The position numbers and the translations under genes are program-made. Below are positions 5,130 to 54,623 of a DNA stretch of 64,000 nt, piece by piece. Location: NCBI GenBank assembly GCA_021582295.1, contig CP091137.1:148970-212969 (forward strand), written 5' to 3'. The notes beneath the pieces were generated by a model. It did no database searches, was not told the DNA's origin, and was given only the letters and a program-made list of their open reading frames with translations. This DNA is from Candidatus Thiovulum stygium (GTDB lineage Bacteria; Campylobacterota; Campylobacteria; Campylobacterales; Thiovulaceae). Numbering within the stretch: the stretch's first letter is position 1; every line of letters begins with the position of its first letter.

Positions 5130-8100
5130 TTAATGAAACTGCAATTTTATTCTCATTCCAAGCCTACTACTACTCAAATTATAATCAGTTGTAATGTTAT
5201 AGTTAACAGTTTGATTTTCATCTTTCGGTGCTTCAACAACACTAACAGTTTGGCTTTCTACAGCAGGATCGTTTGTAATTCCATCATTAACCTTAACAGA
5301 AACATTATATTCTCCAGTTGTGTTAAATGTATGCGGGAAATTTTTTGAATTAACATTTTGGTTTGTTCCATTAATTTCCCACATATAACTTAACACATCA
5401 TCATTATCGGCATCAATAACAGAAATATTAAATTCACAACTCTTATTTACTTCACAACTTGAAGGAAATTTAATAACTGTTATAACAGGATCAGAATTCA
5501 AAACTGTAATGTTTTGCTCTTTTGTTGTATTTTTGTCGTTAGCAGAAGCTATAACCTTAATTGGATAAACTCCAGATTTAGTAGGATCGAAGTTATAAGT
5601 ATTACCTGTTCCAACATTTGTTGAACCGTTAAACCAAGTGTAAATTATTGAAGAATCCGGAGTAACATTGCCATCAACTGAAAGATTGAAAGGTTTTGTG
5701 CTATAACCTGTAAAGTTATTATCAGCTATTTTAATTGCTGAAAGTTGTGGAGCTCCAAGTGGTAAAACTGTAATGTTAAATTCATTACTTGTTGCTGTTT
5801 GACCAATAGAATCGGTAGCTGTAACTTTACAAGCTGAATTTACAGGATCATTATTATTGTTTATAACAGTTCCGCTAATTAGACCAGTTGAAGAATGTAT
5901 AGTTACATTTGTAGGAGAACAATTTAAACCATAACTTAAAGTATCATTTACATCACTGAAATATAAAGAAGTTGAAATATTAAGATCTTTTCCGCTATAT
6001 AGTTGAATGGATGCTATTGTTCCAGTAAATTGTGGAGTTGTATTATTATCAAACGGATCAGTCGGTGCTTCAACAACACTAACAATTTGGCTTTTTACAG
6101 CAGGATCGTTTGTAATTCCATCATTAACCTTAACAAAAACATTATATTCTCCAGTTGTGCTAAATGTATGCGAGAAATTTTTTGAATTAACATTTTGGTT
6201 TGTGCCATTAATTTCCCACATATAACTTAACACATCATCATTATCGACATCACTAACAGAAACATTGAATTCACAACTCTTATTTACTTCACAACTTGAA
6301 GGAAATTTAATAACTGTTATAACAGGATTAGAGTTCAAAACTGTAATGTTTTGCTCTTTTGTTGTATTTTTGTCGTTAGCAGAAGCTATAACCTTAATTG
6401 GATAATTACCTGATTTACTAACCTTAAAGTTATAAGTTGAACCACTACCAACATTTGTTGAACCGTTAAACCAAGTGTAACTTATTTCAGAACTCGAAGT
6501 AATATTACCATCAACTGAAAGATTGAAATATTTGTTGCTATAACCTGTAAAGTTATTATCAGCTATTTTAATTGCTGAAAGTTGTGGAGCTCCAAGTGGT
6601 AAAACTGTAATGTTAAATTCATTACTTGTTGCACTTTGACCAATAGAATCGGTAGCTATAACTTTACAAGCTGAATTTACAGGATCGTTATTATTGTTTA
6701 TAACAGTTCCGCTAATTAGACCAGTTGAACGATTTATAGTTACATTTGTAGGAGAACAATTTAAACCATAACTTAAAGTATCATTTACATCACTGAAATA
6801 TGAAGAAGTTGAAATATTAAGATCTGTTCCGCTATATTTTTGAATGGATGCTATTGTTCCAGTAAATCGTGGAGTTGTAGTTTTTGTTACACAATAGCCA
6901 GTTCCATTAACTTCGTTTGTCATTAAATCGCAAACTAAACAAGTTCCATTTAAATCAAGACCATAACCACTAATATTTAATTCGCAATTATTTATTGGAG
7001 TTGTTTGATTACTATTATCAACACATTTACCATTTTCTGAATATTGTGTTGCTGAACAGGTTGGAGTTGTATTATTATCAACTTTAGAAATTATAATATT
7101 TCCAGATAGAGAATAGAGTTTTGCAAGATCAAATTTATTGCTAATATTGTTAGATAAATCTCCGCTGAAAGGTGAAACAAGAGAATTATTTGTATCAGCT
7201 TTAAATCCATCAAAACTATCTAAACCAGAAACATAAAGAGACATAGTGTAGTTGCCATCTTGAGAGAAGAATCTTTGAGCCAAAGTATCATTAGTAGAAG
7301 ATATTTTTTCATATATTAAATCTAACAGTTTTGTATGATTTAAAGATAATATTTGATTGCTATTTATAGTAATAACACGACTAAAATCTAAATTAGAAAC
7401 TTCAGTAGAAATAGGTGTTCCATTTGATTTTTTGCCATAACCATATAAAGTTGATGAACTATTTGTATCAACTGAAAGCTGATTATCGTTATAATTTAAT
7501 GTAACATTTGGAATAACTGCAAATATAACTCTATTTGAATTATCAACTATTTTCATACCAATTGTAACAATTTTTTTATCACTAGCTTCAAAAGAATTAG
7601 TAAGTCTTAAACTCATAATAAAGTCTTCTGATTCCACATTTGGAACTTCAAAGGTAGAATAATTAACAATACCAAAACTTCCGTTATTTAATATAACTGT
7701 TCTGTTAAGATCTTTATTTGTAATACCAAAAGTAACTTTATTTTCAGCAAGTGCTAAACCGTCTGTATCAGGTGTTGCAACAGGTTCTGCAATAACTGTT
7801 ATTGTGATAGTTTTAGTTGAACTTACACCATTTGCTGTTCCAATAACAGTTATTGTATGAGTTCCGACTGTGGTAAACACATAATTAAAAGTATAGCTAT
7901 CTGTATTTTGAACAATCCCGTCAATATTCCAAGAGTAAGTTGTATTAGGAATAGTTGAAGTTACAGTAAATGTAACTGTTCGGTTAGGATAAGTTTGAAG
8001 ATAATTAGCAAAAATAGATATATCTGGAGTAAGTGAAACATCTTTTGGAGCAATAACAACATTTAAGCTTTTTGTTTCAGTTAAACCATTTGCAGAAATA

Positions 8101-35978: not shown

Positions 35979-36005
35979 TAAAATTTTATAAAACTCTAAT
36001 AAATA

Positions 36006-36340
36006 TTAAGACATCATAATATCGTAAGGTCGTCGAACCTCATCAACAAGTTGAGCTGGACTCATTGCACGAGATTTTCGAGTAAATTCTCGACCTTCAA
36101 GAAAAACAACAATTGTTGGCACAGCAAAAATTGAATATTGGGCAGGAACATCTGGTGTTTCGAGAACATCAACAAAATATCTACCCATTTCAGGAAATTC
36201 TTCTCGCATTAATTCCATAACTTTTGGACGAAGTGTTTTGCAAACATTACATTTAGGAGATGTAAAATAGATTATTGTGGCTTTCTCTTTTTTAAAGCTA
36301 TTATTATCTCATCAATAGTTTTAATTTGTGAATCTAACAT
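36006..36340 (-). pseudogene. Thioredoxin-family protein (CNVC active site) split by a -1 frameshift in a T6 run
   Basis: The track ORF (70 aa) lacks the CxxC motif. Its frame is open upstream through KKEKATIIYFTSPKCNVCKTL. The ATG at 36340 has a GAGAGGA RBS and joins that frame if T6 36288-36293 gains one base. Confidence 0.65.
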
Positions 36341-36462
36341 ATATTTCCTCTCTAATATTTAAAATCAATTTGGAAATTTTAACCAACTTTTAAAGTAGAA
36401 ATCTAATTATTGATTCTATTTTGACTTTTTGATTCGTTTGCTTTGAGTCTGTTCTTCGTATC

Positions 36463-36500
36463 TAAAATAAATAAGAACTTTTGGGACAAGCCCAAAAGTT
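36463..36500 (-). terminator. Rho-independent terminator of the kinase gene
   Basis: 10-bp stem aacttttggg/cccaaaagtt with a 5-nt loop at 36476-36500, followed on the minus strand by the T-rich tract cttatttatttt. Confidence 0.65.
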
Positions 36501-36525
36501 AATAGATAAATAGATAAGAAAAACA

Positions 36526-37986
36526 TTATCTCACACAACGAAACAAAATAATATAGTACTGATCGAGGTTGTAGTCATTTCCACTGCTGAAACTCAATCC
36601 CCATGAATAGGAAGTATAAGTTTTATCTATAGTTGATGACCAATACCAATCATTTTGCATATTTCTAAATTCGCTTTTGTGTTGGTAAGCAATTCGCAAC
36701 TCTTCAATTGTTGGGAGTCTCCAATCAGAAAAACCTAAAAGACGAAGATTTTCGCAATATTTACAGGCATCCTTCCAATTCATCCGTTTTGGTAAGTTTG
36801 CATCTTGAAACATTAGGTTACCAATTGTTATAGTTTTAGAAGCTATTTCAACTTGTGTTAATTGATTTTGAACATTTGAATTAGTTGGCTGTTTTAGTTG
36901 ATTCTGAAGATTTTGAACATTTGAATTAGTTGGCTGTTTTAGTTGATTCTGAAGATTTTGAACTTGAATTTTAAGTTGTGAATTCTCATTTTGTAAATTT
37001 ATCACTTTGCTTTTTTCAGCTTGTAATTCAAGTTCTAATTTTGCAATTTTATTTGAAAGTTGTTGTGTATTACTACTTTGATTTGAATTATATATGTTAG
37101 GTGTATAATTTATATCTTTTAAAGATTTTTCTAATTCTTGAAGCAACTCATCAATAATCGAATCTTTCAAACTCTTTAAATCTTTAAAAATTTTTGAATT
37201 CTGTAAATTGACAAAATCATTTGACATAAAAAGCAAGTTTTCACCATTTGCATATAAAGAATATAAACTAGGTTTTATAGAGAGTGCTTTTAATGAAATA
37301 GAGATTATTAAATGCGGAAAATAGTCAATTCGTAAATCAAAAACTTTGTTGTATCGTTTTGGATGTTGATAATTTTGCGAACCCTCTTCGAGAGCATCAC
37401 GACCCTTTAAAGCTGGAACAAACATACCATCATAATCTATTAATTTTATTTCGCCATTTGGCAAAACAATCATATTGTCATGTTTTAAATCTCCGTGAGC
37501 AAATCCTAAATGATATGTTATATTTATTAATTCTCGCCAATTTTTATAAAGAGTCTCTAACTTTGACTTATTAGAAATATTAGAACAATTATTTTGTAAA
37601 TAGACTCCAAGAGTTTCGCCTTCAACCCATTCCATTTTTACAACGGGATAAAGCTCTTCTTGTTTTGTTCCTTGAGGGGTAATTGCCAATTCTTTATCAA
37701 TATATTCATAATCGCAGAAATATATGCTTGGATTATTTTTAATAAATTGAGATATAGCTTCATATCTCTCTTTTCGTTCAATATTTTCGCGAATAAAACA
37801 TTTCAAGGCATATTTTTTATTTGTAGCTAAATCTTCCATTTTAAAAACAGTTGCAAATTTTCCAGCTGAACCAATTGGTCGACCGAAATTATCATTTCTA
37901 ATTGATTTAAAATTTTGTAGTTTATCGCCTCTAGTTTTAATATGATTGACTGCTTGAACATATTCTGTAATTGATGGAAAATTCAT
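36526..37986 (-). CDS. Fusion protein: Ser/Thr protein kinase-like domain - coiled coil - DUF1566 (Lcl C-terminal lectin-like) domain
   Basis: Kinase motifs: KYALKCF (VAIK-like), HGDLKHDN (catalytic loop) and IDYDG (DFG-like). C-terminal WRLPTIEELRIAY...WYWSST...FRCVR is DUF1566-like. I prefer the ATG at 37986, which has an AGGAGA RBS. Confidence 0.75.
   Translation of the reverse strand: MNFPSITEYVQAVNHIKTRGDKLQNFKSIRNDNFGRPIGSAGKFATVFKMEDLATNKKYALKCFIRENIERKERYEAISQFIKNNPSIYFCDYEYIDKELAITPQGTKQEELYPVVKMEWVEGETLGVYLQNNCSNISNKSKLETLYKNWRELINITYHLGFAHGDLKHDNMIVLPNGEIKLIDYDGMFVPALKGRDALEEGSQNYQHPKRYNKVFDLRIDYFPHLIISISLKALSIKPSLYSLYANGENLLFMSNDFVNLQNSKIFKDLKSLKDSIIDELLQELEKSLKDINYTPNIYNSNQSSNTQQLSNKIAKLELELQAEKSKVINLQNENSQLKIQVQNLQNQLKQPTNSNVQNLQNQLKQPTNSNVQNQLTQVEIASKTITIGNLMFQDANLPKRMNWKDACKYCENLRLLGFSDWRLPTIEELRIAYQHKSEFRNMQNDWYWSSTIDKTYTSYSWGLSFSSGNDYNLDQYYIILFRCVR
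36866..36955 (-). repeat. 45-bp tandem repeat x2 in the coiled-coil linker (VQNLQNQLKQPTNSN x2)
   Basis: ttttgaacatttgaattagttggctgttttagttgattctgaaga is repeated exactly. Confidence 0.9.
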
Positions 37987-38011
37987 TTTATCTCTCCTGT
38001 TGTAAATATGG

Positions 38012-38047
38012 TTATTAATATGCAAAATTGTATCAAAATTTAAATTT
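38012..38047 (-). promoter_or_regulatory. Promoter/operator element, copy A (upstream of the kinase gene)
   Basis: 36-nt exact copy of the element at 38662-38697. The minus sense reads AAATTTAAATTTTGATACAATTTTGCATATTAATAA and contains an extended -10 (TGaTACAAT). Confidence 0.55.
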
Positions 38048-38064
38048 CTAAAAATATGATTCTC

Positions 38065-38403
38065 CTAAATCTCAAAAACCTTTTTTAGAGCCTCTTTTAC
38101 TGCTTCGATTTCACTCTCTGAAATTTCACCAACTTTCTCAATTAACCTACTCTCATCAACTGAACGAACTTGAAAAGTGTCAATTACTGAACTCTTTTTT
38201 AATCCATTTTTACTATTTGGCTCTATCTTAACAAACCAAGGAACAGAGATATAATGAGGTTTAAAATCTGTAATTGGAGCAATGATTTTTAATGGAAGTT
38301 TTCCAATATCATCTCCATTTATAATTACAGCAGGTCTCTTTTTCTTAAATTCACTTCCAACTGTTGGATCAAGATTTACGATCCAAATTTCTCTCTGTCT
38401 CAT
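38065..38403 (-). CDS. mazF: MazF/PemK-family endoribonuclease toxin
   Basis: MRQREIWIVNLDPTVGSEFKKKRPAVII is the canonical PemK/MazF N-terminus. 112 aa; 4-nt overlap with the upstream antitoxin. Confidence 0.85.
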   Translation of the reverse strand: MRQREIWIVNLDPTVGSEFKKKRPAVIINGDDIGKLPLKIIAPITDFKPHYISVPWFVKIEPNSKNGLKKSSVIDTFQVRSVDESRLIEKVGEISESEIEAVKEALKKVFEI

Positions 38404-38648
38404 CTAAAGTCTTCACTATCAAGAGCTGTAAATTCTGTAAGTGATTTATCATCTCTGTAATCTTCCATCATTAACTGAACACTCTTTTTCATTCTAACTT
38501 TTTCCTGTTTTTGAATATACTCTTCAACAGCATTTTTTAAAATTTCAGACTTAGATACTCTGAACTCATTTTTAAGATTTTCTAATTGCTGATTTAAAAA
38601 GTGTGGAATTGTAAAAGTTACTTTATCATAAGATTGGAATGTTTGCAT
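38400..38648 (-). CDS. Antitoxin (ribbon-helix-helix type) of the MazF-like toxin
   Basis: Small acidic-tailed protein immediately upstream of mazF and overlapping it. I prefer the ATG at 38648 (MQTFQSYDKVTFTIP...), which has an AAGGA RBS, over the track start at 38708. Confidence 0.7.
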   Translation of the reverse strand: MQTFQSYDKVTFTIPHFLNQQLENLKNEFRVSKSEILKNAVEEYIQKQEKVRMKKSVQLMMEDYRDDKSLTEFTALDSEDFR

Positions 38649-38661
38649 ATAAATATCCTTA

Positions 38662-38697
38662 TTATTAATATGCAAAATTGTATCAAAATTTAAATTT
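38662..38697 (-). promoter_or_regulatory. Promoter/operator element, copy B (upstream of the antitoxin)
   Basis: Identical 36-mer to 38012-38047. The TGaTACAAT box ends 28 nt upstream of the antitoxin ATG. Confidence 0.55.
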
Positions 38698-38820
38698 ATA
38701 ATAATCATTGATTTCAGAACTATTTAAGAAAACTAACTTTTAGCTATTATAAATATTTATCTAATTTTTTTAAAAATTAGTTTGCACCGCAAAACTACTA
38801 AAAAATAGTAATTTAAAAGC

Positions 38821-39168
38821 TTAAATATAAATAAATTTATAGTGATTTTTTTGTTAGAGTGCCTCTCATGGGAGTTGAGCTTTTCAAAAAAAAATCTTCA
38901 AATTATTTGAATTTGACATCATCGAAAAAATCGCTATTTTAAAAAGTTTGCTTAAATAAAAAAATTAGTTGATCGAAAATTGGTCAAAATTGGCTAAAAA
39001 CAGCACTTTTTTAGTAACCTTAAATATAAATGAATTTATAGTTATTTTTTTGTTAGAGTGCCTCTCATGGGAGTTGAGCTTTTTTAAAAAAAATCTTCAA
39101 ATTATTTGCATTTTGACCTTATCGAAAAAACGATATTTTAGAGATTTTGCTTAAGCTTAAGAATTAGT
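38821..39168 (+). repeat. Two direct copies of a ~150-bp element (period ~199 bp) upstream of the type IIG RM gene
   Basis: Copy 1 is 38821-38970 and copy 2 is 39020-39168. They share the core ttgttagagtgcctctcatgggagttgagctttt...aaatcttcaaattatttg...atcgaaaaaa. Confidence 0.85.
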
Positions 39169-39429
39169 TTTATTTTTAAGTGGCATTTGATGAGGTGTCT
39201 ATCAAGTATATTTATATAATATGGTTTTAATGTTGAAATGCTAAATTTATATTTTATAGATCAAAAAATTAAAAAATCCCGACCATGAGCATCTTTGAGT
39301 ATTTTTAAATTTATAGAGTATATATTTTTATTGAATATAAAATTTTTTCAGAGCTAATTTATTGTATGTTTTAAGCTAAAAATTAATTTTGACTGCTACA
39401 ATTCTCAAAATTTAACAAAAAGGAAAGAG

Positions 39430-42261
39430 ATGGAAATATTTAAAAAGACAGTTTTAAAAAGACATAAGCAAGATGAAAATCTTCTTAAAGGTCGTTGGGA
39501 AAATCTTCAAAAATATAAATCTAAAATAGATTTTATTAGAAATATAAAAGAGGAAAAATATCAAGATGGTTTTTTAAGAGATGTTTTTGAAAATTGTCTA
39601 GGTTATGTTCTTGATACCACAAATCCAGAACATTTTAACATTCGCCGTGAAGAGAAAAATGAGACTGATAATAAAAAAGCTGATGCTGTAATTCTTGTTG
39701 ATGATAAGGTGATTGGAATAATTGAGCTAAAAGATCAAAAGACAAAAAATCTCGATTCTGTTGAAATTCAAGCATTTAATTATCATAATTCGCACTCAAA
39801 CTCTAAATACATTATTATTTCTAATTTCGATGAGGTGCGATTTTATATCGATAAAAAAACAAAATTTGAATCGTTTTCGCTTTTTAATCTTGATTTTGAG
39901 AGTTTTAAACTTTTACATCTTGTTTTAAGTTTTGAGTCTATTTCTATAAATTTACCAATAAAGCTTCTCGACGAAACGAACGAATTTGAAAAGGAGATTT
40001 CAAATCTATTTTATAAGGATTTTGCGGAACTTCGGCTTCAACTTTTTAGCGATATTTCGAATTTGAATCAAATTGAAAAACTTGAAGCTCTTGCAATTTC
40101 GCAAAAAATTCTCGATAGATTTATATTTATATTTTTTGCTGAAGATCGCTATCTTTTGAATCCTAAAATTTCAGATGAGATTTTTAAAAAATGGAAAAAT
40201 GATATTGAATTTAGATCTCTTTTTTATTTTATTAAGGTTTTATTCAATGCTGTTAATAGTGGAAATGTTCGAATGGATATTCCAGCTTATAATGGTGGAC
40301 TGTTTGCCAATGACCATAAAATCGATAATTTGGAGATTTCAGATTCGGTTCTTGAGAAAATTATTCAACTTTCAAAATATGATTTTAGCAGTGATATTGA
40401 TGTTAATATTTTAGGTCATATTTTTGAAAATAGCCTTGATGATTTAGAAAAAATTCGTGAAAATATTTTTGGTGGCGAATTTGATATTTCTCGGGCAAAA
40501 CGGAAAAAAGATGGAATTTTTTACACACCAAATTATATAACTGAATATATAGTTCGTGAAACGGTTGGAAAATTTTGCGATGAGAAAAAAGTTGAACTCG
40601 GTTTTATGAATTTTGATGAAATTAAAAGTTTGGAAACTGCTAAAAGTTATTTAAATTTTCTTGAAAGTTTGAAAATTATCGATCCTGCAGTTGGTTCTGG
40701 AGCTTTTCTTAATCAGGCTTTTAACTATTTGTTTGATGAGTATAAATCTGTTTATGAAACTATTCATAAATTTGCTATTAGTGGTCAAAATCTATTTTTA
40801 ACTCAAGATTTCGATATTACAATTATTGAAAATAATCTTTTTGGAATTGATATAAATCAGGAAGCGGTTGAAATTGCAAAACTATCATTGTGGTTGAAAA
40901 CTGCTAAACGAGGTCGCAAATTGACAAATCTAAATAGAAATATAATTTGTGCTGATTCTCTATTAAATATGCCCTTTAAATTTGGTAGTTTTGATATCGT
41001 AATTGGTAATCCGCCGTATGGCATTAACACTGAAAAAGTAAAACATAATTTTGAACTACAATCAGGTGAAAGCACAATTCTATTTATGCAATTAGCAATA
41101 AAACTATTAAAAAAAGGAGGGTTTAATGGTTTTATTATTCCAAAACCTTTTATTTTTGCCTCGACTTGGAATGAAATTCGAAATAAGCTAAAAGATGAAA
41201 TTAAAATCATTGTTGATTGTGGTGAAGTTTGGTCAGAAGTTCAACTTGAACAAATTATTTATGTAATTCAATCAAATAAAAAATTTGAAAAATATAATAA
41301 TTTTATTTTAAAAGATGGTAAATTTATATATTTAGCTGAAATTAACAAAGACCTCATCGATCAATTCGAGTTTTTTATAAATCGAGTTTCTGAAAAAGAG
41401 ATTTTTATTGCTTTAAAGATGGTTAAAAATAGCATAAATTTACTTGAAATATCTTTTGCAAACTGGGGAGATACTTTTTTCAAGTTGATTCAAGAAATTG
41501 GAGCTATCAAAGTGTTATCTGGTGCAAACATTCAAAAGTATTATTTTGACGGTATAAAGGGTTTTATTTTAGAAGATGTTAAAGTTTCTAAAAATGCTTT
41601 CATTCGAGACAATTCAGTTTTACTTCAAAGAATTATTGCTCACATTCAAAATCCAATTGATCATATCAAAATTACTGGAACTATTATAAAAGATATAACA
41701 GAATATTTCATAGTTAATACTATTCAGCAGATAACTTTAAATAAAAATTATTCAAATAGGTATATTTTGGCATTATTGCATTCTAATTTAATCAATTGGT
41801 TTGTTTATCGTTTTATTTTTGCTAAAGCTATTAGAACTTTTCAATTTTCAAATGATGTAATTAAAAGAATTCCAATTGTTGCAATTTCAGAAACTGAACA
41901 ACAACCATTTATCGAACGAGTTGATAAACTATTAGAGTTAAATAAGAATTTGCAAAAAAACAGAACTCAGTTTTTAGATGAACTGAAGCTTGAAAAAATA
42001 TCGCAAAAACTTGAAAACTTTGAAAAATTGAGTCTTGATGAGTTTATCGTCGAATTTGCAAAAGCTCATAAAATAAAATTAAGCGATAAATTAGCTGAAC
42101 GAAATTTAAAAATTGAGTGGAAATCAATCTTCGAAAATGATAAAAGTCTAATTATTAAAATTAGTTCTGAAATCAAAAAACTAGAAACTGAAATCGATAA
42201 TTTGGTTTATAAGCTTTATGATTTAAATAGTGCTGAGATTATGATTATCGAAGGACGATAA
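39430..42261 (+). CDS. Type IIG restriction-modification enzyme (fused PD-ExK endonuclease, gamma-class N6-adenine methyltransferase and specificity domain)
   Basis: N-terminal ADAVILVDD...IIELKDQK (D...ExK). Methyltransferase motif I IIDPAVGSGAFLN and motif IV VIGNPPYG. IIENNLFGIDINQEAVEIAKLSLWLK. C-terminal ...VYKLYDLNSAEIMIIEGR. Confidence 0.85.
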   Translation: MEIFKKTVLKRHKQDENLLKGRWENLQKYKSKIDFIRNIKEEKYQDGFLRDVFENCLGYVLDTTNPEHFNIRREEKNETDNKKADAVILVDDKVIGIIELKDQKTKNLDSVEIQAFNYHNSHSNSKYIIISNFDEVRFYIDKKTKFESFSLFNLDFESFKLLHLVLSFESISINLPIKLLDETNEFEKEISNLFYKDFAELRLQLFSDISNLNQIEKLEALAISQKILDRFIFIFFAEDRYLLNPKISDEIFKKWKNDIEFRSLFYFIKVLFNAVNSGNVRMDIPAYNGGLFANDHKIDNLEISDSVLEKIIQLSKYDFSSDIDVNILGHIFENSLDDLEKIRENIFGGEFDISRAKRKKDGIFYTPNYITEYIVRETVGKFCDEKKVELGFMNFDEIKSLETAKSYLNFLESLKIIDPAVGSGAFLNQAFNYLFDEYKSVYETIHKFAISGQNLFLTQDFDITIIENNLFGIDINQEAVEIAKLSLWLKTAKRGRKLTNLNRNIICADSLLNMPFKFGSFDIVIGNPPYGINTEKVKHNFELQSGESTILFMQLAIKLLKKGGFNGFIIPKPFIFASTWNEIRNKLKDEIKIIVDCGEVWSEVQLEQIIYVIQSNKKFEKYNNFILKDGKFIYLAEINKDLIDQFEFFINRVSEKEIFIALKMVKNSINLLEISFANWGDTFFKLIQEIGAIKVLSGANIQKYYFDGIKGFILEDVKVSKNAFIRDNSVLLQRIIAHIQNPIDHIKITGTIIKDITEYFIVNTIQQITLNKNYSNRYILALLHSNLINWFVYRFIFAKAIRTFQFSNDVIKRIPIVAISETEQQPFIERVDKLLELNKNLQKNRTQFLDELKLEKISQKLENFEKLSLDEFIVEFAKAHKIKLSDKLAERNLKIEWKSIFENDKSLIIKISSEIKKLETEIDNLVYKLYDLNSAEIMIIEGR

Positions 42262-48306: not shown

Positions 48307-48360
48307 ATGTTTTTTCGCAAATATATTTTATAATTAATAATTTGCGGAAAAACTATTTAT

Positions 48361-48597
48361 CTAACACAACGAACATAATAAGTATTTATGTTATTTTTTG
48401 ATTCATAGTTTCCATTATTTAAATAAAATACAAAAGATTGAGAAATTATCTCTTTATTTATAGTTAAGCTCCATAATTTAACTTCGTTGTATTTTCCACC
48501 CTGATTATATTCAGATTTTCTTTTTTCAAAATCATTAGTTTTTTCAAATTCATCTTTTGGAAATAAAACTTCAAAATTATTATAAATATTAATTTAG
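48361..48597 (-). pseudogene. Start-less remnant of a DUF1566-like gene (related to the C-terminus of the 36526-37986 kinase fusion)
   Basis: My minus-strand translation gives ...GGKYNEVKLWSLTINKE...YYVRCVR*. The kinase fusion ends ...ILFRCVR*. There is no in-frame start codon, and a TAA lies at the upstream end of the frame. Confidence 0.45.
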
Positions 48598-49172: not shown

Positions 49173-49214
49173 GTTCTAAATAAAAAAATAAAAAATAAAT
49201 TTGGAGGCAACATC

Positions 49215-50970
49215 ATGCAAAATATCAAAAAATACAAGATATCAAAAAATACAAGATATCAAAAAAATACAAGATATCAAAAAAATACAAGATGAATTTC
49301 TCGAACAATTTGAATACCAACAGAAAGATGAATTTCAAGAAGATGAATTTCAAGAAGATGTATTTCAAGAAGATGTATTTCAAGAAGATGTATTTCAAAA
49401 TGAATTTCAAAAAATAGATGTATTTCAAAATGAATTTCAAGAAATAGATGAATTTGAATTCATGGAAATGCAAAATAAGAAAAATAAGAAAAATAAGAAA
49501 AATAAATCTACAAAAAATAAAAATCAAGTAGAAAATACAGTTAGTGAAGTTGTTAGTGAAGCAATTGTAGAAGATGCTCATAATAATAAATCTGATAAAA
49601 TGTCTAAATCAACAGATTTACAAGTTAGAAGACCAAATAAACTTTATGAATTACCATTAAAGAAGAATTTAGCTCTTCTTTTTGATATATTGATGTATAA
49701 CTTTTATGTTCTAAATCCGAAAGATAAAGAATTTAAAATGTCTTGGATTGAACTTCAAAAGAACTTTCAAATAAATACTGCAAATAAAAATCATATAAAA
49801 GAGAAGTTACAAGAACTTCAAGAACTTAATTTAATTTCAGATTTAAAAACTTGGAATTATGGCTTTTATTATAAATTCGAAAAGACTTTTTTAAGTTATG
49901 AAGAGATTTTAGCACCTAAAACTTGGACTTTTTTAAATTATTCGTTAATGGTAAAGTTAGATTTCATCTCTTATGTTCTTTATACTCTTGCTTATAAGTT
50001 TTTTAATTTTACAAAAGAGAGTCATCATAAATTTGAAAATCAAACAAAATTCCTTGATACAATTGATTTTTTAAAGACTTTTAGTCAATCTCAATCATTA
50101 ACAAATGGAGTAGCACAAAACAGACTTTTAAAACGAGTTCGAGAGAGTCTTGTAATTCTAAGAGAATTTGGAATTCTTATTGAAATTCAGACAAAAACTT
50201 TTGGAAAACCAATTATAGGTATAAAATTCTTGTTTAGAAAAGTTCCAAAGTTAAAACCAATTATTACTAAAAATGTAGATTTCACTATTCAACGAAAAAA
50301 AAGAGCTTTAAAAGGTGTTAGTATTAATGCTGAAAATTGGAAAGCATATAGTCAAAAAAAGCACTTAAATGACTTAAATGATGCATATAAAAATACTGAA
50401 GATTTAACTATTAGAAACTTTATTCTTGAAGATTTATTTCCAGCAGTTGTTCGTTCAAAGATGGACTTTATCCAAGAAACTAGAATGTGGGTTATAAAGA
50501 AGTTTAAAGATGAAAAAACAGGAAAATATAACATTACTACTGAAGAAGCTCGTAAGGTATTAGAACAGTATAAAAGTCGAGGATCTTTTGAAAAAATGAT
50601 TGGTCGAGGTATTTTTGATAAAAAGACTAAGTATTTAAAAATGGATATAAAAGCTGATGGTACAGAGTTTTATATTTTTGGACAACATCCACTTATGTCA
50701 AAAATTAGAACAACATATCAAATTCTAAAAGTTGATAAAAACTTTAAAATTGATCCAAATTTTAAAGATGTTAGTAAAGATGTTAGTAAAGATGTTAGTA
50801 AAGATGTTAGTAAAGATGTTAGTAAAGATGTTAGTAAAGATGTTAGTAAAGATATTATTAGCCAAGATGTTAGTAAAGAGGTTATTAAAGATATTATTAG
50901 CAGGGATATTAGCAAGGATATTAGAGAAATTAGTAGAAATATTAAAACTAACAGTTATACTTTGAAATAG
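49215..50970 (+). CDS. Repeat-laden protein with a plasmid Rep (winged-helix initiator)-like core; 5' end ambiguous
   Basis: A GGAGG RBS lies 7 nt before the ATG at 49215, but that ATG is in frame only if two A6 runs are read as A7. The track uses the TTG at 49201. The central part (WTFLNYSLMVKLDFISYVLYTLAYKF...) resembles Rep_3-type initiators. Several in-frame tandem repeats. Confidence 0.5.
49222..49291 (+). repeat. Four direct 17/17/18/18-bp repeats atatcaaaaaa(a)tacaag (iteron-like, or coding KKIQDI repeats)
   Basis: Units at 49222, 49239, 49256 and 49274. The first two carry A6 and the last two carry A7. Confidence 0.85.
50767..50850 (+). repeat. 12-bp tandem repeat gatgttagtaaa x7 (DVSK x7) at the 3' end of the Rep-like ORF
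   Basis: Seven perfect copies, followed by degenerate DIIS/DVSK/DISK units. Confidence 0.9.
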
Positions 50971-50988: not shown

Positions 50989-53900
50989 ATGGAACATCTT
51001 AAAACTAGATCTTTATTAACTCACTCTTATTCTGCTTCAATAATTTCTGAAGAAAGATTTTTAAAATTTCTTGGAGAGTTAAAAAAGTATTTAAATAATA
51101 TTTATAAAATTGAAAATGAAGAAACTGGAAAAACATCTTTACGAGAACTTTTTAAATCAGTTGGTTATAAAGATAATTATAAAATTGAACCTTATGATAA
51201 AATAGATTTAGCAATTTATGAAAATATTGAGCATAAAAAAATTGAAGTAATTATTGAAGCAAAATTACCTAACAGTCGCGAAATGGTAATAAATAACGAT
51301 TTTAATAAAAAAGCTTTTGCTCAAATTTGTTATTATGCTTATAAATATAATAGTTCGTCTATAAAAAATTTAATAATTACAGATTATAAAACTCTTTATA
51401 TCTTTAAAGCTAATGAAATTAAAAAAATTATTGATTCCCCTTTTTTTCCAAAAATTAGTAAAAAAGCTTTAACTGAAGAAATTTATGCTGATATTTTAAA
51501 AAATTTTGATTTTTTACCTGAAATTAAATATGGTTATATAAATTTTGAAAAGTTTATAATAAAAGATATAGAATTTCTTGAAAAAAATATTTATTTAAAT
51601 AATGATGAAATTTTTGAATTAAAAAGAGAATTAACCGCAATTTATAAAGTTTTATCTCCTCAAAATCTTTTAGAGTTAAATATTGACAAAGATATGAATG
51701 AACTTGATGATAGTTTTTATCGAGAACTTTTATATATTTTTGGAGTTGAAGAGCGACAAGATTCAGATGGAATCACTAAAATTTTAAGAATTGAATCTGA
51801 GGAAAAAAGAGAACATGGTTCGATTTTAGAATTAACTTTTGCTGAAAATAGTAATTTAACTTTTGAAGAATCTTTTGAATTGAATATTATCTGGTTAAAT
51901 AGAATTTTGTTTTTAAAGTTATTAGAAGCTAGATTATTATTTATGCACCAAGATATAAAAGCATTTATGAATATCGAAATAATTCCAGATTTTAGGCAAC
52001 TTGAAAATCTATTTTTTGAAGTAATGGCAAAAGAGATTGAATTTAGAAAAAATGGTTTGGAAATATTTTCAAGAATTCCTTATATGAACTCATCGCTTTT
52101 GAAAAAAAAGATGCTGAACTTCAGTTTTTCGGTATTAAAGCTCTTGATTCTAATATTTCTTTAAAATTATATGCAAATAGTATTTTAAAAAATAGCGAAT
52201 TTAAGACTTTAAATTATATTTTTCGTTTTCTTGATAGTTATGATTTTGGTAGTAATAAATATCAAGAAGTTTCTAAAATTGATAAAACTCTTATTAAATC
52301 TTCTGTTTTAGGTCTTATTTTTGAAAAAGTTAATGGTTATAAAGATGGTTCTCATTTTACTCCATCTTTTATAACTCAAAAACTAGCTAAAGATTCTCTC
52401 GATAAATTTAATGGTAATTTAAAAAATATTAAAGTTCTTGATCCCGCAGTTGGTTCAGGACATATTTTAGTTTCTGTTATGAATGAGCTAATTGTTCGTC
52501 AAATTGAGTTAAAAGGTCGTTTTGGCAAAACTCGTGAAGTTAATATTAATATCGAAAATGATGAGATTTTTATCTCTGATGAAGTTCAATATATTGCAAA
52601 TCAAGATAATAAATTTGATCCAATTGCTGAAGAGATTCAGTTTCAAATGTTTGATTTAAAAAAAGAATTATCGAAAATAATCTTTTTGGTGTTGATATAA
52701 ATAGCAATTCTGTTGAAATCGCTCGTTTGCGATTATGGATTGAGCTTTTAAAATGGAGTTATTACGACGAAAATAATAAATTTACTGTTTTACCAAATTT
52801 AGATATAAATATTAAAGTTGGTAATTCTTTAATTTCACGATTTAAAGTTACTGAAAATATAAATAAAATTGGTAAAGATAAAGTCTCGCGACTTCAAGAA
52901 CTTGGTCATCTTTATTTTAAAAAATCTGGCATTGAAAAACGAAAAATTATTGATGAAATCAAAAATATTAAAAATAGCTTTATTGAAGTTTTGCAAAATG
53001 ATGATCCTCAACTCAAAAAAATTAAACGAAAAATTCTCGATTTTCAAGATAAACATGGTGACGAATTTATTAATGACTATCTTAAAACTTATAATTTAAC
53101 TGCTAATCTATTCTCAATTTATCAAAAACCTAATAAGAGCTTAAAAAAAGATTTACTAGAAATTGATGAACTTCATCAAAATATTCAATTTTTGGAAAAT
53201 TTACAAAACTCTTTCGAATGGCGATTCGAATTTCCAGATATTTTAAATAGTAATAGTGATTTTATAGGTTTCGATTTAATTATAGCAAATCCTCCATATA
53301 TTCGACAAGAACGAATTAAAGATCTTAAGCCTTATCTCGAAAAAAGATATAAAATTTACAATGGCACTGCTGATATTTATACATATTTTTTTGAACTCGC
53401 TTTTGAACTTTTATCTAAAAATGGAGTTATAAGTTTTATCACTTCTAATAAATGGACTCGAGCTAAATATGGTCAGAATTTAAGAGAATTTATCTTACAA
53501 AATAGCGATATTTTGCAATATGTCGATTTGAACGGTATTAAAGTTTTTGCACATGCAACTGTTGATACAAGTCTTATTTTTCTAAAACATCGTTCTGATT
53601 ATGTTAATATCGATAAAAATATTAATGAAATTAGAGATACTCCTTTTAAATTTTGCATTGCAAATGAAAAAATTGAGATTTCAAAAGAGAATCCAAAAAT
53701 TAAAGAAAAAACTTATAGTTATAATTGTTTTGAATATTCTATGAAAAATCTATCTCCTGATACTTTTTCGTTTGCAAATTCTCAAGAGCTTGAGATAAAA
53801 AAGAAAATTGAACAAATTGGCACACCGCTAAAAGATTGGGATGTTAAAATAAACTATGGCATTAAAACAGGTTTTAATGAAGCTTTTATAATTTCGACTG

Positions 53901-54623
53901 AAAAACGAAATGAGATTTTGAATAATTGCACCTCATCAGATGAACGAGAACGAACTGAAAAGATTATTAAAGCCAATTTTAAGAGGTAGGGATATTAAAA
54001 GATATGGGTATGAGTGGGCAGGGCTTTGGATAATAGTTGTTAAATTTGGTTTTAATGCTGAGCTTGATAAATATCCAGCAATTTTAGAACATTTAACACA
54101 ATACAAAGAGCAATTAAAAAATCGTGGTCAATGCAGATATTCTCGTGGAGGAATTGGGCAAGGACAACATCATTGGCTTGAACTTGACAATAATCCAAAG
54201 GATTTTTACTTGGATGAGTTTGAAAAAGAGAAGATTGTTTTTAAAGCAATAGGTAAAAATTTAGCTTTTTCAATTGTTAAATCAGGAATTTTTGTTTCAG
54301 CTCCGTCATCGTTTCTAACTTCGCAAAAAAACAAATATATTCTAGGCATACTATCTAGTAAAGTTGTTCAAAGTTATATTTACGATAATTCTGATAGAAC
54401 TGGAGCTGGAGATGTTATGTTAAATATTCAATCTTTTGAAAAAATTCCACTCCCAAAAATATCACAAGAAGAGCAAGAACCATTTGTAAAACTTGTTGAT
54501 GAGATAATGGAGCTAAAAGCGAAAAATGAAGATACAAAAGAATTTGAGAATCAAATCGATGAAATGGTTTATAAACTTTATGGTTTGAGTGAGGATGAGG
54601 TAAAGATTATAAACGGCAAATAA
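50989..54623 (+). pseudogene. Type IIG restriction-modification enzyme (~1200 aa if intact) broken into four collinear frames
   Basis: N-terminal DLAIY...VIIEAKLP nuclease motif, IPYMNSSL(F), VLDPAVGSGHIL (motif I), IIENNLFGVDIN after repair, IIANPPYIRQE (motif IV), a TaqI-like C-terminal part and ...LYGLSEDEVKIINGK. Frame breaks at A8 52102-52109 (-1), A7 52658-52664 (-1) and around 53940-53989 (+1). Confidence 0.8.

Follow-up and report, generated by a model that had tools for sequence, protein, structure and literature searches.

A TerY-P-family kinase gene with a putative hypervariable lectin-fold tip follows a mazEF cassette and a copy of the mazE promoter region in Candidatus Thiovulum stygium

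Introduction

In Staphylococcus aureus the toxin-antitoxin (TA) genes mazEF precede, and are co-transcribed with, rsbUVW-sigB. In this study we analysed a related arrangement in a stretch of 64,000 nucleotides (nt) of Candidatus Thiovulum stygium DNA (contig CP091137.1, positions 148,970 to 212,969). This whole stretch is called the window, and coordinates are window positions. Three genes, all on the minus strand and referred to as the trio, encode an antitoxin, a MazF toxin and a protein of 486 amino acids (aa) that joins a kinase domain, a coiled coil and a DUF1566 lectin-like domain. The locus resembles mazEF-rsbUVW-sigB of S. aureus in that the antitoxin and MazF genes lie directly upstream of a phosphorylation-based signalling gene with no terminator between them. 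However, the downstream gene of the window has its own duplicate of the mazE promoter, and its product is a Hanks-type kinase and not an anti-sigma partner-switching set. The tripartite TA systems (toxin-antitoxin-chaperone, omega-epsilon-zeta and paaR-paaA-parE) likewise carry a third gene directly after the TA pair, and in Thiovulum sp. ES this third gene is J-domain co-chaperone-like. They differ from the present case in that the third gene of this mazEF clade is not conserved and a dependence of the TA pair on it would be conjectural.

The kinase itself has relatives among antiphage systems. Passages of PMC11090510 and PMC4978471 that summarise Gao et al. (2020) and Anantharaman et al. (2012) describe the TerY-P triad as a TerY vWA protein, a PP2C phosphatase and a Ser/Thr kinase (STK), and a passage of PMC11090510, citing Gao et al. 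(2020), presents the kinase-OB version of TerY-P as a validated stand-alone antiphage system. The kinase domain of the window protein matches, along its entire length, the PADLOC model STK_OB (E 2e-58), and close homologues of it stand in the TerY-PP2C-STK operons of three other loci (L001, L004 and L005), whereas the window contains neither TerY nor PP2C, a coiled coil and DUF1566 take the place of the OB fold or zinc ribbon, and the gene follows mazEF. With the single-gene defence kinases of the PD-T4-6 and Stk2-like kind the protein shares a kinase domain with a variable C-terminal domain and a location in a defence island, and weak PADLOC matches to PD-T4-6 were obtained (best E 1.3e-12). 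These are, however, far weaker than the match to STK_OB and confined to the catalytic core, and membership is not claimed.

The C-terminal domain leads to another group of described systems, the diversity-generating retroelements (DGRs). The variable positions of DGR targets fall almost exclusively at codon positions 1 and 2 (PMC10907252), DUF1566 is the domain of 14% of curated DGR targets (PMC5758913), and targets combining a kinase with a C-type-lectin (CLec) fold have been described in cyanobacteria and Thiohalocapsa (PMC5758913, PMC7517822, PMC10907252). The window protein is like the DGR targets of CLec fold (DUF1566/CLec2, Legionella LdtA) in its C-terminal CLec-fold domain, in the variation of scattered NNY codons at codon positions 1 and 2 within the last ~100 nt, in having multiple paralogous targets, and in having homologues with proven pairs of template repeat (TR) and reverse transcriptase (RT). 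It is unlike them in that its cognate TR and RT were not found in the window, the fetched loci or the contig scans, and in that the protein appears cytoplasmic. From the described kinase-CLec targets it differs in that its kinase is of the TerY-P type and its lectin domain is DUF1566, the described ones being of the FGE type. The preliminary description of this locus had stated that no described system shows such a combination, which overlooks both the TerY-P-family kinase and DUF1566 as a known class of DGR target.

Results

Genes of the trio

The explanation that we favour, by a modest measure, is a composite one, in which an ordinary TA cassette lies beside a kinase gene that encodes a variable tip and would be driven from a duplicated mazE promoter. 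The gene calls made in the preliminary description (antitoxin, MazF and a 486-aa kinase-coiled coil-DUF1566 protein) hold by Pfam. The mazE-like antitoxin gene (38400..38648, minus strand; 82 aa) encodes a protein of the ribbon-helix-helix (RHH) type (Pfam RHH_3, E 1.9e-5). The 102-aa open reading frame (ORF) that begins at 38708 was rejected as too long, since the homologues begin at the MQT residues: the orthologues in L085 (the locus of Thiovulum sp. ES), L086, L088 and L092 measure 81-83 aa and share the N-terminus (MQT..SYDKVTFTIP). The antitoxin stop codon overlaps the start of mazF by 4 nt (38400-38403). The toxin gene (38065..38403, minus strand; 112 aa) matches Pfam PemK_toxin (PF02452) with an E value of 5.6e-28 over profile positions 1-109/109, and its product has 308 homologues, one of them in Thiovulum sp. 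ES at 86% identity, while a search of viral contigs returned no relatives of MazF. The pairing of an RHH antitoxin with MazF is kept in L085, L086, L088, L092 and L094, the last a Campylobacterota metagenome-assembled genome. The cassette has the PemK/MazF-fold toxin and the small, coupled antitoxin gene directly upstream by which MazEF/PemIK systems are recognised, and toxicity and its neutralisation are predicted.

The kinase gene (36526-37986, minus strand; 486 aa, Pkinase and Lcl_C/DUF1566 by Pfam) completes the trio. Within 36300-39450 the only terminator-like site, a hairpin followed by a T-run, lies 3' of the kinase gene (36476..36500, minus strand), and no such hairpin occurs between mazF and the kinase gene; therefore, read-through from mazF into the kinase gene is likely. 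The hairpin could double as a DGR target hairpin. A search of 36000-39500 against Rfam (E<=1) gave zero matches, and the repeats described below are not explained by a known RNA.

Two copies of the mazE promoter region

The 36-mer AAATTTAAATTTTGATACAATTTTGCATATTAATAA occurs exactly twice in the window, on the minus strand, at 38012-38047 and 38662-38697, and had 0 matches in 100 shuffles, which confirms the exact 36-nt duplicate noticed earlier and shows that it is not a chance event. The repeat lengthens to 44 nt at 95% identity, and its copies, whose starts are 650 nt apart, stand on either side of the antitoxin and toxin genes. In the ~1 Mb of DNA that was fetched, its 25-nt core is limited to these two sites in each strain. 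The native promoter region of mazE, copy A (38662..38705, minus strand), comprises an A/T tract, the extended -10 box TGATACAAT at 38677-38685, a probable start site and the left arm of a palindrome, and ends 13 nt ahead of the antitoxin ATG (38648). Copy B, its duplicate (38012..38055, minus strand), begins 10 nt past the mazF stop codon and ends 25 nt before the kinase ATG (37986), carrying the extended -10 box at 38027-38035 at a workable distance from AGGAGAG, the strong ribosome-binding site (RBS) of the kinase gene. The palindrome CATATT-AAT-AATAAG (38658..38672, minus strand) is a candidate operator or an element of the 5' untranslated region that overlaps the mazE Shine-Dalgarno sequence, and it is conserved as CTTATT(T)-N1-3-(A)AATAAG between the -10 box and the RBS in L085, L086, L088 and L092. 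The repeat ends inside it: copy A reads CATATT-AAT-AATAAG and copy B CATATT-AAT-AACCAT, the right arm being replaced by AACCAT. What had been described as a duplicated promoter/operator is thus upheld for the promoter, a copy of which precedes the kinase gene, but not for the putative operator, as only half of the conserved palindrome lies inside that copy.

The direction of the duplication was read from an alignment of the regions upstream of mazE at seven loci, namely the window, L001, L085, L086, L088, L092 and the second pair of L094, in which MazF is 69% to 99% identical to that of the window and the genomic contexts are unrelated. All seven promoters have the same architecture of (T)G-n-TATAAT, TTT(A/G), the palindrome CTTATT(T)-N1-3-(A)AATAAG, GG and a start codon at a fixed distance. 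Because this architecture recurs in unrelated contexts, the promoter is native to the cassette and the repeat ahead of the kinase gene is its copy. The reverse possibility, that the promoter originally belonged to the kinase gene and MazEF was inserted into it, is ruled out by the homology of the -10-to-RBS region across mazE genes in these contexts.

The trio and the duplicate are also present in L001-L003, which are strains of the window's species, and here the strain-specific substitutions are alike in both copies. In L001, hereafter the sister strain, two bases differ from the window and do so identically in both copies; one of these substitutions makes TGATACAAT a perfect TGATATAAT. The extended -10 box recognised in the preliminary description is therefore found in both strains. 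The intergenic DNA around the repeats is only 61-83% identical between the window and the sister strain. The two copies evolve in concert, being kept alike by gene conversion or selection.

Kinase domain

The N-terminal 300 codons of the kinase gene (37087..37986, minus strand) encode a Hanks-type Ser/Thr kinase domain of the TerY-P family, as assigned with PADLOC STK_OB, Pfam Pkinase, AlphaFold2 (AF2) and Foldseek. Pfam Pkinase matches residues 37-186 of the protein (E 8.6e-11), and the PADLOC model PDLC02223 (STK_OB) matches residues 1-274 (E 2.3e-58) over profile positions 1-267 of 562 only. Residues K62, H164-G-D166, N171 and D184 vary hardly or not at all among 21 homologues, the PknA motifs HRDVKPGN and TDFG are the counterparts of HGDLKHDN and IDYD in the alignment, and in the AF2 model residues 1-300 have a pLDDT (predicted local distance difference test) score of ~90 and match WNK3, PKR and CK2 in Foldseek. 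The motifs from which a kinase core had first been proposed (ALK, HGDLKHDN and DYDG) survive proper alignment with the 21 homologues and PknA. The protein possesses the beta3 Lys, the HRD-like Asp, the catalytic-loop Asn and the DFG-like Asp of Hanks-type kinases.

The STK_OB family was equated with TerY-P because of the PADLOC models TerY and PP2C, beside which STK_OB is numbered, and because of PMC11090510. The TerY and PP2C models match genes that flank homologous kinases in L001, L004 and L005: L005 (Ca. Thiovulum imperiosus) has TerY-PP2C-STK, and in L004 a gene for a DUF1566 protein comes after TerY-PP2C-STK. The commonest neighbour of the kinase family is of the vWA/TerY-like kind, which occurs in 52 of the ~81 loci analysed. 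When the TerY proteins of L001 and L005 were compared with all window ORFs by phmmer no match was obtained, no PP2C homologue is present in the window, and no C-terminal OB fold or zinc ribbon was found on the window kinase, the coiled coil and Lcl_C standing in their place. A literature search for the model name STK_OB and for RT-associated kinases returned nothing useful.

The linker that follows the kinase domain (~aa 305-392; 36811..37074, minus strand) is helical and coiled-coil-like, with long helices at residues 305-349 and 369-392 that AF2 modelled with low confidence. The exact tandem repeat of 45 nt that it contains (36864-36953) bears out the earlier description of a repeat-containing coiled coil, and the number of repeats differs in the sister strain.

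A scan of species-representative genomes with the kinase-domain alignment gave 80 loci, mostly from Bacteroidales and Alphaproteobacteria and two from Campylobacterota; those from Bacteroidales have leucine-rich-repeat (LRR) C-termini and often tandem paralogues. As an observation in its own right, this family forms a large uncharacterised expansion in Bacteroidales of gut and rumen (L007-L083), with two or three tandem paralogues per locus that differ in their variable LRR (BspA-type) C-termini and often lie beside vWA genes and a gene for a conserved ~218-aa protein.

Lectin-fold domain and its variable region

The C-terminal domain (aa 381-486; 36529..36846, minus strand) is a DUF1566/Lcl_C domain (Pfam E 3.4e-17, residues 397-486). 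The structure prediction that the preliminary description had asked for was carried out on the last 106 residues with an alignment of 28 homologues, and AF2 returned a C-type-lectin-like fold with a pLDDT of 94.7, in agreement with the lectin-like domain postulated earlier. The best match in the PDB by Foldseek was 8q4e, the C-terminal domain of Legionella Lcl (template modelling score 0.79); C-type lectin-like proteins of snake venom ranked next. In the kinase protein neither a signal peptide nor a transmembrane segment was seen, and it appears to be cytoplasmic.

The end of this domain differs between strains in an unusual manner. Over 4.3 kb of coding sequence the window and the sister strain diverge by ~1.5%, the differences being distributed as 19/7/38 over codon positions 1/2/3, and the flanking genes and the kinase domain are 98-99% identical. 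By contrast, the 99 nt that immediately precede the final codon of the kinase gene contain 22 differences, distributed as 9/10/3 (p 2e-4 vs 19/7/38). Two paralogues of the sister strain, L089 (a J-domain/DUF1566 protein) and L090 (a 160-aa DUF1566 protein), share with the kinase gene a near-identical scaffold of 200 nt and diverge in these 33 codons too. When all four sequences are compared, the variable columns fall as 18/16/6 by codon position, as against 19/7/38 in the flanking genes (p 6e-6). In about 17 of the codons the third base (T or C) is retained, whereas up to four different bases occur at positions 1 and 2. Such a bias is what mutagenesis of the adenines in AAY codons of a DGR template would be expected to produce. 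On the strength of this codon-position bias the 33 codons (36532..36630, minus strand), with their ~17 NNY codons that differ between strains and paralogues, were designated a putative DGR-type variable region.

Homologues that are proven DGR targets were obtained when viral contigs were scanned with the DUF1566 domain alignment, which yielded L096 and L097. In L097 the mismatches of the variable region fall at A of the template repeat in 16/16 cases and an RT-like ORF is adjacent; in L096 this holds for 14/15 mismatches, and three variable-region paralogues are present. The template Asn codons of L096 (AW-N-V-N-F-N-N-G-N-SDY-N-N-Q-N-N) coincide with the variable positions of the window domain. 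The template repeat predicted for the kinase gene would be ~100 nt long and resemble ATAAATAAAAATAATAATTCCAATTCATGGGGATTGAATTTCAACAATGGAAATGACTACAACAACGATCAGAACTATAATAATTTG. The occurrence of A in every variable column had also been considered as a test for a DGR, and it was dropped because ~87% of variable columns contain A by chance in such AT-rich DNA. The tip of the kinase's lectin fold looks like a DGR variable region, and this likeness, read from the codons, is the most informative new point of the analysis. We consider it probable that the variability of the kinase C-terminus has a DGR origin, and rate current DGR activity on this gene below that.

Linkage of the kinase to mazEF and genes behind related cassettes

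Every ORF of the 80 kinase loci was searched by phmmer with MazF and MazE of the window, the conspecific loci L001-L003 lying outside that scan. Only one weak MazF-like ORF was found among the 80 loci (L027, E 4e-5), and no antitoxin relatives occurred in them within 6 kb of the kinase; otherwise, MazF and MazE relatives were found only in L001-L003, where the trio occupies the same site by trx, nadA and dnaJ and the flanking genes are 97.9-100% identical to those of the window. Kinase and MazEF are linked in a single species only. The preliminary description had set a search for co-occurrence in other genomes as the check on a conserved linkage, and for the kinase family this linkage is, apart from the one weak ORF, largely absent.

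Conversely, the genes downstream of related mazEF pairs differ from locus to locus. In Thiovulum sp. ES the gene is separated from mazEF by a 10-nt gap and encodes a J-domain protein, in L086 a 294-aa lipoprotein-like protein, in L088 a 271-aa protein that is HNH-like by eye, and in L092 a KilA-N/T5orf172 protein, the divergent neighbour on the other side of the L092 cassette being a PKD-DUF1566 gene. A three-component module with a conserved third gene does not agree with these differences and with the restriction of the linkage to one species. Homology links the J-domain protein of Thiovulum sp. ES with P0150, which the sister strain encodes and which joins a J-domain to DUF1566 (E 3e-35), with the DUF1566 protein next after the L004 TerY-P kinase (E 9e-31) and, more weakly, with the L086 protein. 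It is suggestive that the genes downstream of related mazEF pairs draw on one pool of modules, three of them sharing modules in a sample of five loci.

Two further observations concern these genes. A segment here called the middle domain (GEFEK.VD..R ... MTY.AD), with no Pfam family, is carried by the J-domain protein directly after mazEF (L085, 5756-7203), by the J-domain/DUF1566 protein (L089, 349-1548) and by the DUF1566 protein of the TerY-P operon (L004, 7796-8890). In addition, the arrangement of MazEF and a J-domain protein in Thiovulum sp. ES resembles toxin-antitoxin-chaperone systems.

Direct repeats also surround related cassettes. In L088 mazEF is bracketed by a 27-nt direct repeat (89% identity, spacing 661 nt), and in L092 by one of 19 nt (89%, spacing 647 nt), the downstream copy of which overlaps the mazF stop codon. 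In L094 there are two neighbouring PemK toxin-antitoxin pairs, and a shared 160-nt repeat comes after each of them (4326-4486 and 5366-5526, 91% identical); the first antitoxin of this locus is unrelated in sequence, and the repeats suggest that whole cassettes and their 3' flanks were duplicated as units. The repeats that flank mazEF differ in sequence between loci, and the two short ones of L088 and L092 have no -10 box. In the simplest view, a cassette that is duplicated or inserted leaves behind a repeat of its 5' end, and the lineage of the window kept a longer, promoter-bearing one before the kinase gene.

Defence-island context

The mazEF genes adjoin a type IIG restriction-modification (RM) gene (39430-42261; PADLOC E 9e-120). 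In the sister strain the same slot (L001, 1-8560) holds TerY, a 249-aa gene, PP2C, a second STK (534 aa, 58% identical in the kinase domain) and ZorA2-like, ZorB2-like and WD40-like genes, so that the TerY of this strain sits in a neighbouring operon next to a different kinase. The exchange of a type IIG RM gene for TerY-P and ZorAB-like genes is typical of defence islands, and the defence-island setting noted earlier from the type IIG RM neighbour was confirmed with PADLOC. The joining of a TerY-P triad to ZorAB-like genes in the sister strain is itself an unusual combination.

Discussion

In the composite explanation that we favour, two adjacent units would occupy a defence-island slot that varies between strains, in the chromosome of a Thiovulum-like member of the Campylobacterota. 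One would be an ordinary type II TA cassette, composed of an RHH antitoxin and a MazF/PemK toxin with its own extended -10 promoter, and the other a cytoplasmic sensor kinase, composed of a TerY-P-family kinase domain, a coiled coil and a DUF1566 lectin fold with DGR-like last 33 codons. The kinase gene would have no independent promoter, being preceded by a 36-51-nt duplicate of the mazEF 5' end (A/T tract, TGnTAyAAT, start site and the left half of the palindrome), and its transcripts would probably come from two sources, the duplicate promoter and read-through from PmazE. The most likely origin of the duplicate is a duplication or insertion of the cassette, events that have left similar direct repeats around related cassettes. 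The duplicate would then have been retained as a kinase promoter and homogenised with the original, the concerted change being evident from the strain comparison and gene conversion its putative mechanism. As for function, the hypervariable lectin surface would bind an invader-derived or other changing ligand, the coiled coil would mediate oligomerisation and the kinase would phosphorylate cellular or phage targets, with MazEF acting as a co-expressed growth-arrest/addiction module and not as a proven regulator of the kinase.

If the reading of the variable region is true, the locus would present a TerY-P-family kinase with a hypermutated sensor domain and would link an experimentally validated but mechanistically poorly understood defence kinase to the DGR "antigen-sensor" idea for multicellular bacteria and, further, to a sulfur oxidiser that is small, swims fast and has a compact genome. 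The duplicated promoter offers a simple test case for TA promoters that are co-opted to drive neighbouring defence genes, and the recurrent direct repeats round related mazEF cassettes give a hint of the way in which these are moved or duplicated. Should the reading be wrong, the locus would be an ordinary TA pair beside an orphan kinase in a variable island.

Several results weigh against parts of this explanation, and most of them concern the variable region. No RT-like ORF is present in the 64-kb window and no reverse transcriptase in the fetched loci, neither the window nor the fetched loci yielded a template repeat that would serve the kinase variable region, the window has no second copy of this region, and scans of viral and metagenome contigs for a template-repeat/variable-region pattern gave zero matches, the metagenome collection evidently being without this species. 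The alleles of the variable region also differ by a 6-nt indel just upstream and in their 3' flanks, the window allele having a length like that of L089 and a flank like that of L090. Exchange between paralogues by gene conversion therefore certainly plays a part, and some of the pattern could be due to it. In the small DUF1566 paralogue, moreover, the variable regions are identical in the three sampled copies. These points, together with the almost identical 200-nt scaffold shared by at least three paralogues and the shuffling of length classes and 3' flanks between the window and the sister strain, would fit an origin of the hypervariability outside any DGR, by positive selection and gene conversion among the several DUF1566 paralogues of the genome. 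However, conversion moves diversity and does not create a pattern in which ~17 codons hold their third base while the first two positions take up to four bases; ordinary divergence in the same strains is mostly at the third position; and the variable codons coincide with AAC codons in the template repeats of verified DGR homologues. We regard such an origin as rather unlikely. Outside the variable region, a sigma-70 scan gave 19 sites as compared with 19.7 in shuffled sequence and missed the extended -10 box, being uninformative in DNA this rich in AT. Promoter activity, start sites and read-through at the kinase gene are all predicted, the proposed origin of the repeat by duplication is drawn from three loci, and the kinase substrates, whether cellular or phage proteins, are putative.

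The preliminary description had gone further with respect to regulation, suggesting that both units answer to the same repressor. In such an arrangement both copies of the repeat would contain the mazE operator, MazE with or without MazF would bind to both, and the TA pair and the kinase would form one module that is derepressed together on loss of the antitoxin. This agrees with the derivation of the kinase-gene promoter copy from the TA cassette and with the concerted change that holds copy B identical to the original. It also agrees with some of the neighbourhoods: the mazEF of Thiovulum sp. ES, of the same clade, is followed after the 10-nt gap by the J-domain protein homologous to the J-DUF1566 and TerY-P-operon DUF1566 proteins, the downstream gene of L086 shares the same middle domain, and L092 has the PKD-DUF1566 gene as its divergent neighbour. 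If the palindrome is the operator of the RHH antitoxin, as would be the usual arrangement, the kinase-proximal copy is without half of it. This is the sole palindrome conserved in mazE promoters, and because only one half of it is inside copy B, shared repression is not implied by the sequence. Furthermore, none of the 80 loci with kinase relatives contains a close relative of this mazEF pair (the weak ORF of L027 aside), the third gene is unrelated in L088 and L092, and the repeats of these two loci exclude the -10 box and operator. A common repressor is unlikely in our view. The contrary proposal denies the repeat any regulatory role: it would be a mere scar or recombination site of a mobile mazEF cassette, the kinase would be expressed by read-through only and the adjacency would be incidental. 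Independent loci do have short direct repeats of different sequence on both sides of mazEF, at comparable spacings (647-661 nt), L094 has two neighbouring PemK toxin-antitoxin pairs, mobile-element genes of the KilA-N/Bro-N type occur near mazEF of L085, L086 and L092, and the slot adjoining mazEF is swapped between strains. But the repeat of the window is longer and exact, it includes the whole of an extended -10 box and of a start region, suitably spaced from a strong RBS, and the fact that it stays identical across the strain divergence, while its intergenic surroundings do not, points to selection or frequent conversion and not to decay. This proposal we hold to be decidedly unlikely. At the other extreme, the trio could be imagined as a programmable immune module, with a DGR-rewritten lectin tip, continually acquiring new specificities for ligands, on a cytoplasmic TerY-P-type kinase that is slaved to the mazEF promoter and perhaps acts on MazE or MazF, so that recognition of a ligand would lead to growth arrest by MazF; the mazEF clade would then be a portable platform for the expression and stabilisation of a swappable third gene (kinase, J-domain protein or lipoprotein) taken from a common pool of modules. 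This idea is highly speculative, and we give it little credence.

Other Features of the Window

A DUF1566 remnant lies at 48360-48596 on the minus strand and consists of a 78-codon C-terminal fragment with no start codon and a weak match to Lcl_C (E 4e-4). It is Asn-rich (NNGN, KNNIN), ends with RCVR and contains the DEFEKTNDFEKR motif of the middle domain, and it resembles a decayed target gene or template repeat. It was considered as the template repeat of the kinase variable region and rejected, being 63% identical to the predicted template repeat (39% at the protein level) with no RT adjacent. The preliminary description was right to report a start-less DUF1566 fragment here; its suggestion that the pairing recurs was not borne out, as there is no MazEF or kinase beside the remnant and a 589-aa gene separates it from the second RM gene. 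This 589-aa ORF (49201-50970) has highly repetitive ends (QDIKKI, EFQEDVFQ and KDVS repeats) and no PADLOC match. The second type IIG RM gene (50989-54623) is broken up into three or more ORFs (391, 420 and 227 aa), which all match PADLOC PDLC03612 in order, and is either a pseudogene or switched by frameshift.

Between the first type IIG RM gene and mazE, two copies of a unit of ~199 nt occupy 38817-39169. Their 98-nt core is 94% identical and contains GTTAGAGTGCCTCTCATGGGAGTTGAGC, two copies are likewise kept in the sister strain (L001, 8800-9170), and the units have no Rfam match; they could represent a small RNA, a repeat element or an island boundary.

Downstream of the kinase gene, the thioredoxin-like gene at 36006-36347 (minus strand) has a disrupted 5' end in comparison with the 111-aa gene of the sister strain. 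Stop codons stand ahead of KKEKATIIYFTSPKCNVCK and the longest ORF, of 70 aa, is without CxxC, which reflects a frameshift, a pseudogene or a sequencing error.

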